DNA of 64,000 nucleotides from Escherichia coli (lineage in GTDB: Bacteria > Pseudomonadota > Gammaproteobacteria > Enterobacterales > Enterobacteriaceae), in the NCBI RefSeq assembly GCF_001677475.2, contig NZ_CP015229.1, one strand, 5' to 3'. This document shows, piece by piece, positions 12,825 through 12,900 of this stretch. Below the pieces are notes generated by a model, which ran no database searches, was not told the origin of the DNA, and saw only the letters and a program-made list of their open reading frames with translations. The translations under genes and the position numbers were made by a program. Numbering within the stretch: the first letter of the stretch is position 1; every line of letters starts with the position of its first letter.

Positions 12825-12900
12825 TGGTGGAGCTAAGCGGGATCGAACCGCTGACCTCTTGCATGCCATGCAAGCGCTCTCCCAGCTGAGCTATAGCCCC
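12825..12900 (-). tRNA. alaX: tRNA-Ala (GGC)
   Basis: Reverse complement reads GGGGCTATAGCTCAGCTGGGAGAGCGCTTGCATGGCATGCAAGAGGTCAGCGGTTCGATCCCGCTTAGCTCCACCA, 76 nt with CCA end; only one copy present. Confidence 0.95.

Follow-up and report, generated by a model that had tools for sequence, protein, structure and literature searches.

A single tRNA-Ala(GGC) gene in place of the tandem alaX-alaW pair between pdeA and yfeC of Escherichia coli

Differences of one tRNA gene, more or less, among E. coli strains have already been described, as have three- and four-copy tandem Gly arrays (PMC4539685). With regard to mechanism, direct repeats in E. coli that are shorter than about 200 bp and lie close together undergo RecA-independent deletion and expansion by slipped misalignment, including an 82-bp pair carried on plasmids (PMC7063769). 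Two studies of tRNA-dosage duplications in Pseudomonas fluorescens SBW25 likewise describe tRNA copy number shifting through tandem repeat dynamics (PMC7661048, PMC10954465).

Here, we analyzed a locus of this kind in the window, by which we mean the whole 64-kb stretch of DNA under study, where one tRNA-Ala(GGC) gene occupies the position of the alaX-alaW pair of K-12. The locus resembles the slippage model of Bzymek and Lovett (PMC7063769) in the length of the repeat (81 nt here, 82 bp there), its close spacing, the loss of one unit and the existence of both deletion and expansion products, and differs in that the earlier work used plasmids in the laboratory, whereas the present event is chromosomal and deduced from natural variation. 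Compared with the SBW25 duplications, which are large-scale, arose in laboratory populations and in one study followed deletion of a tRNA gene, the unit here is only 115 bp and a role of selection is unsupported. The closest parallels are other tandem tRNA arrays of E. coli (valU-valX-valY-lysV, and glyV-W-X-Y with three or four copies), in which identical tandem genes also vary by one unit among strains, as reported for E. coli (PMC4539685) and as seen here for the Val array; these concern other tRNAs, and the Ala array has only two units, such that its contraction leaves a lone gene. We consider it very probable that the locus is an alaW-alaX tRNA-Ala(GGC) unit that lost one of its identical tandem genes through repeat misalignment, and that it represents a recurrent low-frequency variant that is probably near-neutral or mildly deleterious.

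The lone tRNA-Ala(GGC) gene and its surroundings

The features of the locus, ordered by position, are as follows.

10428..12617, minus strand: pdeA, the left flanking gene, 729 aa with MASE1 and EAL domains (open reading frame list; exact protein match with Pfam domains; K-12 annotation)
12785..12817, minus strand: intrinsic terminator, a 10-bp stem AACCCTCGCTGCAAAGCGGGGGTT (hairpin 12817-12794) followed by a T-run (terminator scan)
12820..12900, strand not applicable: 81-nt stretch (AAATT plus the tRNA); genomes with two copies carry it as an exact direct repeat, period 115 nt (calculated from the K-12 sequence)
12825..12900, minus strand: tRNA-Ala(GGC) gene, 76 nt (ARAGORN; Rfam RF00005; 76/76 identity to K-12 alaX and alaW)
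12901..12932, minus strand: GC-rich discriminator GCCGCCCG and short 5' leader up to the mature 5' end of the tRNA (read from the sequence)
12933..12961, minus strand: sigma-70 promoter-like site, TTGACA-17 nt-TATGAT, with 11 of 12 consensus matches (consensus scan; equal to K-12 in the alignment)
13120..13479, plus strand: yfeC, the right flanking gene, 119 aa (open reading frame list; K-12 annotation)
15599..15874, plus strand: Val(UAC)-Val(UAC)-Lys(UUU) array, the two-Val allele of K-12 valU-valX-valY-lysV (ARAGORN; K-12 annotation)

ARAGORN detected four tRNA genes in the 64-kb window, namely one Ala(GGC), two Val(UAC) and one Lys(UUU). The original prediction of a single tRNA-Ala(GGC) gene between pdeA and yfeC was borne out by ARAGORN, Rfam and alignment, with both its coordinates and its identity correct. 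According to ARAGORN, the anticodon ggc begins at position 34 of the gene (34-36), and the Rfam match to RF00005 (63 bits against a gathering score of 29, E = 2.5e-13) is that of a canonical tRNA. The sequence contains G3 and T70, corresponding to a G3:U70 pair, as well as a terminal encoded CCA; G3:U70 is an identity element for AlaRS. Given its identity to the K-12 genes and the conserved flanks, the gene appears intact, and its product is predicted to be transcribed, processed and charged with alanine. An Rfam scan of 12560-13160 revealed no second tRNA or tRNA remnant above threshold, so a degraded second Ala copy is absent from this interval. Matches to tmRNA_permuted, isrJ and other Rfam families over the terminator were all below the gathering score and were taken as chance.

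The gene had also been credited with a promoter and a terminator of its own, and candidates for both are present and conserved relative to K-12. On the minus strand, the -35 element TTGACA (12961-12956) and the -10 element TATGAT (12938-12933) are separated by a 17-nt spacer, and the site is identical to the K-12 sequence upstream of alaW; the consensus match scan returned one promoter-like site against 0.8 expected in shuffles. By analogy with E. coli stable-RNA promoters and operons in general, transcription would start downstream of this site and RNase P would remove the leader. The terminator begins 8 nt past the CCA end, after a 7-base trailer, and is identical to the K-12 sequence downstream of alaX. 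As judged from this conservation, the promoter-like site and the terminator are both probably functional at the Ala gene.

Comparison with K-12 and copy number among complete genomes

In the annotation of K-12 MG1655, the same locus carries the tandem pair that had been expected in the original prediction, alaX and alaW (b2396, b2397), each of 76 nt and separated by a 39-nt spacer, followed by yfeC, yfeD, gltX and valU-valX-valY-lysV. The two loci share the stretch from pdeA to yfeC, the 76-nt tRNA, the upstream promoter region and the downstream terminator, and they differ in that the window has one gene and lacks the 39-nt spacer. The gap between pdeA and yfeC measures 502 nt in the window and is 117 nt longer in K-12. 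Aligned with each other, the two sequences show one clean 115-column gap, equal in length to one 76-nt gene plus the 39-nt spacer, within almost identical flanks. When one unit is removed from K-12 in silico, the result is 99.2% identical to the window over 385 nt; the junction is normal, and the remaining differences are two substitutions and one single-base indel, all distant from it. The crossover of the deletion is located somewhere within the 81-nt repeat and left no scar. Because alaX, alaW and the gene in the window are mutually identical (76/76 nt), which of the two copies "survived" is undefined.

Next, we surveyed copy number at this locus in a collection of 5,426 complete RefSeq E. 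coli genomes, using diagnostic junction queries with strict E-value cut-offs; ordinary BLAST tables merge the matches of two-copy genomes into one place and are thus unusable for single-copy counts. The queries, the states that they report and the results were as follows.

alaX-spacer-alaW junction query, two or more copies: 5,292 of the 5,424 genomes with any match, leaving 132 without the junction
Flank-repeat-flank query of 161 nt, E <= 1e-62, one copy only: 132 of 5,426 genomes (2.4%)
Spacer-tRNA-spacer query, E <= 1e-60, three or more copies: 50 of 5,426 genomes (0.9%)
76-nt gene alone, every copy: 10,777 copies in 5,425 genomes (minimum 1, median 2)

The 161-nt query discriminates because its alignment to a two-copy genome cannot extend beyond 121 nt and so misses the cut-off. 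Its 132 hits agree exactly with the complement of the junction query (5,424 - 5,292), and all 132 matches form one piece over a single annotated tRNA-Ala. The pair is the usual state, carried by 96-97% of complete E. coli genomes. Summed over all genomes, the 10,777 copies come close to the 10,768 expected from 132 x 1 + 5,243 x 2 + 50 x 3, which indicates that the single-copy genomes have no compensating copy elsewhere. By analogy with these complete genomes, the source genome of the window, seen over 64 kb, probably also lacks a compensating tRNA-Ala(GGC) gene elsewhere.

One-copy genomes include O157:H7 EDL933 (three assemblies), Xuzhou21, KO11FL, BL21(RP), K-12 MC1061, OV2, UMNF18, pig ETEC and O111:H8, and the four annotations that were checked each contain a single Ala gene (JP538 AP025180, APEC E19035 CP126926, EDL933 CP008957 and MC1061 CP195014). 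As a possible refutation, the original prediction had named a reference with a single Ala tRNA at this locus; K-12 has two, such that the prediction holds when K-12 is the reference, but some other reference-grade genomes, for example EDL933, do carry one. The occurrence of the one-copy state as a minor, probably recurrent allele in 132 complete genomes makes the lone Ala gene of the window an expected variation rather than an oddity. EDL933, MC1061, JP538 and E19035 are like the window in having one annotated tRNA-Ala, and the flank-gene-flank sequence is identical over 161 nt in many single-copy genomes; they differ in background, and their surrounding DNA is only about 96.5-99% identical to the window. 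The other single-copy genomes are independent occurrences, or at least different lineages. Judged by strain background, the state is spread over O157:H7, K-12, B, W, APEC O2:K1 and pig ETEC, beside two-copy relatives, a distribution that strongly suggests an independent, recurrent origin of the single-copy allele.

At the other end of the range, three tandem Ala genes are annotated in the BL21(DE3) assembly CP081489. Three copies were recorded in four laboratory-strain assemblies with similar accession numbers (BL21(DE3), Rosetta2, BL21-RIPL and XL10-Gold), and the similarity of the accession numbers suggests that all four come from one submitter. BL21(RP) has one Ala copy, and one Nissle 1917 assembly gave five matches to the 76-nt gene. 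The changes in Ala copy number among laboratory strains may be real events in laboratory lineages or artefacts of a pipeline.

Polarity, assembly and mechanism

To determine the direction of the change, we surveyed outgroups with one genome per species by exact match to the 76-nt gene, followed by tRNA scans of Enterobacterales loci. Among the matches listed, the gene is conserved across many Proteobacteria, and the scans identified two tandem Ala(GGC) genes in E. albertii, with the 39-nt spacing of E. coli, and in 14 other Enterobacterales loci; the genera with a tandem pair among these matches are Citrobacter, Enterobacter, Klebsiella, Pseudescherichia, Superficieibacter, Mixta, Pantoea, Rosenbergiella, Dickeya and Acerihabitans. 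The lone outgroup with a single gene among the matches listed is a Plesiomonas MAG whose gene lies at a contig edge. Since every Enterobacterales outgroup with a full locus among the matches listed is paired, the pair is ancestral and the single copy a derived deletion, and the word "contraction" in the original prediction had the polarity right. The reverse reading, in which one copy was the original state and a duplication later produced the pair seen in K-12 and most E. coli, has nothing in its favour beyond the formal symmetry of deletion and duplication; it conflicts with the paired outgroups, E. albertii included, and with the scatter of single-copy genomes amid relatives with two copies, for example further O157:H7 and K-12 strains, and we regard it as vanishingly unlikely.

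A deletion could also be apparent only, if the source truly had two copies and the assembler had merged the tandem 115-bp units into one. Assemblies are known to be error-prone at tandem repeats, and some copy-number calls cluster in accessions that seem to come from a single submitter, as in the four three-copy laboratory strains. However, the repeat of 81 nt is below ordinary read length, and the same state is present in 132 complete genomes, among them three separate assemblies of EDL933. The window's own clone provides a further comparison. None of the 5,426 complete genomes represents its lineage: identity to the window region does not exceed about 97-99%, and a search of the collection for close relatives reached 97.3% at most. 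Draft relatives do exist. A lone Ala gene is present both in GCA_033692955.1, which matches the window at 100% over 17 kb, and in GCA_016118665.1, which matches it at 99.994% over 15.8 kb and carries three Val genes; the gene neighbourhood is shared by 22 further contigs. As these two drafts of the clone were assembled independently, their agreement argues against collapse, and we judge an assembly artefact to be very unlikely. The identity of the PdeA protein to that of K-12 at about 1% DNA difference had raised the idea of a recoded or engineered K-12 derivative, which was rejected on the grounds that intergenic positions also differ from K-12 and that exactly matching natural drafts exist. 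Shigella, considered as a source in view of the distance to all complete E. coli genomes, was rejected as well, since the rarer protein alleles of the window (XapB, LigA, EutB and YfeO) all trace to E. coli.

A loss by repeat misalignment, our preferred explanation, would proceed as follows. In the two-copy form, the 81-nt exact direct repeat with its 115-nt period would allow the copies to misalign, either by replication slippage, which is RecA-independent for short and close repeats, or by unequal sister-strand exchange. Such a misalignment would remove exactly one gene-plus-spacer unit, and the reciprocal event would add one. The product is a monocistronic unit composed of the alaW promoter and leader, one intact tRNA, and the alaX trailer and terminator, and it would still supply tRNA-Ala(GGC), from one gene instead of two. 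The repeat geometry and the reciprocal three-copy product fit slippage and unequal sister-strand exchange equally well, and sequence alone cannot separate the two pathways.

Gene dosage and the neighbouring Val array

The change from two genes to one halves the tRNA-Ala(GGC) gene dosage in the window. tRNA-Ala(GGC) reads GCC and, via G:U wobble, GCU. The cmo5U-modified tRNA-Ala(UGC), which derives from rrn operons, can cover much of the alanine box and would soften the cost of losing an Ala(GGC) gene; in Salmonella, cmo5U tRNAs can reportedly read all four codons of a family box, a finding attributed to Nasvall et al. 2007. Ala(GGC) is not mentioned in Raval et al. 2023. GCC and GCU make up 0.27 and 0.16 of the alanine codons of E. 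coli, respectively (PMC4539685). The low frequency of the single-copy allele, its scatter over backgrounds and its persistence within a clone suggest that it is near-neutral or mildly deleterious.

Alternatively, the contraction may have been favoured in this lineage, for example by trimming surplus tRNA-Ala(GGC) under slow growth or host conditions, with the array acting as a tunable dosage switch. In keeping with this, the window's clone (at least three assemblies) and the EDL933-related group are both fixed for the allele, contraction and expansion alleles both exist, and the window's clone also has a contracted Val array. A frequency of 2.4% and a scattered distribution are, however, expected from repeated mutation combined with drift or weak purifying selection, and a near-identical sister assembly with three Val genes uncouples the two contractions. 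We consider selected dosage to be very unlikely. The same holds for its broader form, to which we would give very little credence, namely that alaW/alaX and the nearby Val arrays are fast-mutating dosage switches whose one-, two- and three-copy alleles are sorted by selection on GCC/GCU decoding, with one copy being adaptive in the window's clone and the EDL933-related group.

The feature belongs to an already known class of copy-number polymorphism, and well-known genomes carry this allele in their annotation. On its own it has little significance, being a small and well-understood structural variation in the dosage of a non-unique tRNA. Because E. coli tRNA counts vary even within K-12, B and O157:H7, the K-12 count should not be presumed in codon-adaptation models, in annotation based on a reference or in the tRNA dosage assumed for expression strains. 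The series of one, two and three copies at the Ala locus would also lend itself to measuring, in a natural setting, how tRNA redundancy affects fitness.

The Val array had been taken to show the same kind of contraction, which is reasonable: the arrangement of two Val genes and Lys is a minority allele that 212 of the 5,426 complete genomes carry, whereas K-12 has three Val genes. The type strain of E. albertii also has two Val genes, which makes the polarity of the Val array less clear than that of Ala. One Ala gene is combined with three Val genes in APEC E19035, MC1061 and GCA_016118665.1, the last being the sister assembly of the window, so the two contractions can occur separately.

Several further observations concern the surrounding DNA. 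An insertion of the IS200/IS605 family (Y1 transposase and TnpB) lies between yfeD and gltX in several strains including EDL933 and is absent from the window. In GCA_033745465.1, which belongs to the window's clone, positions 10400-17257 contain xapR and lysV, then a Lys/Lys/Lys/Val/Lys/Val/Lys array, then cpoB-pal-tolB-tolA-tolR-tolQ-ybgC; this looks like a junction of the valU-lysV array with a distant lysT-valT-type array, arising from a large inversion via inverted tRNA arrays or from misassembly. When the GCA_016118665.1 contig (19838-21257) is compared with the window (15599-16896), it has three Val genes against two, and 13 mismatches fall in the 1.3 kb just past the array, against 1 in 15.8 kb, which suggests that a recombination tract has its boundary at the tRNA array in that assembly. 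Finally, positions 6000-8000 of the window, which cover the 3' part of yfeO, a small gene of the DUF2502 family and some of mntH, differ by 6-13% from E. coli strain 700481, compared with about 1% in other parts, and the YfeO protein of the window falls into its own 90%-identity cluster; this segment was probably imported by recombination from a divergent lineage.
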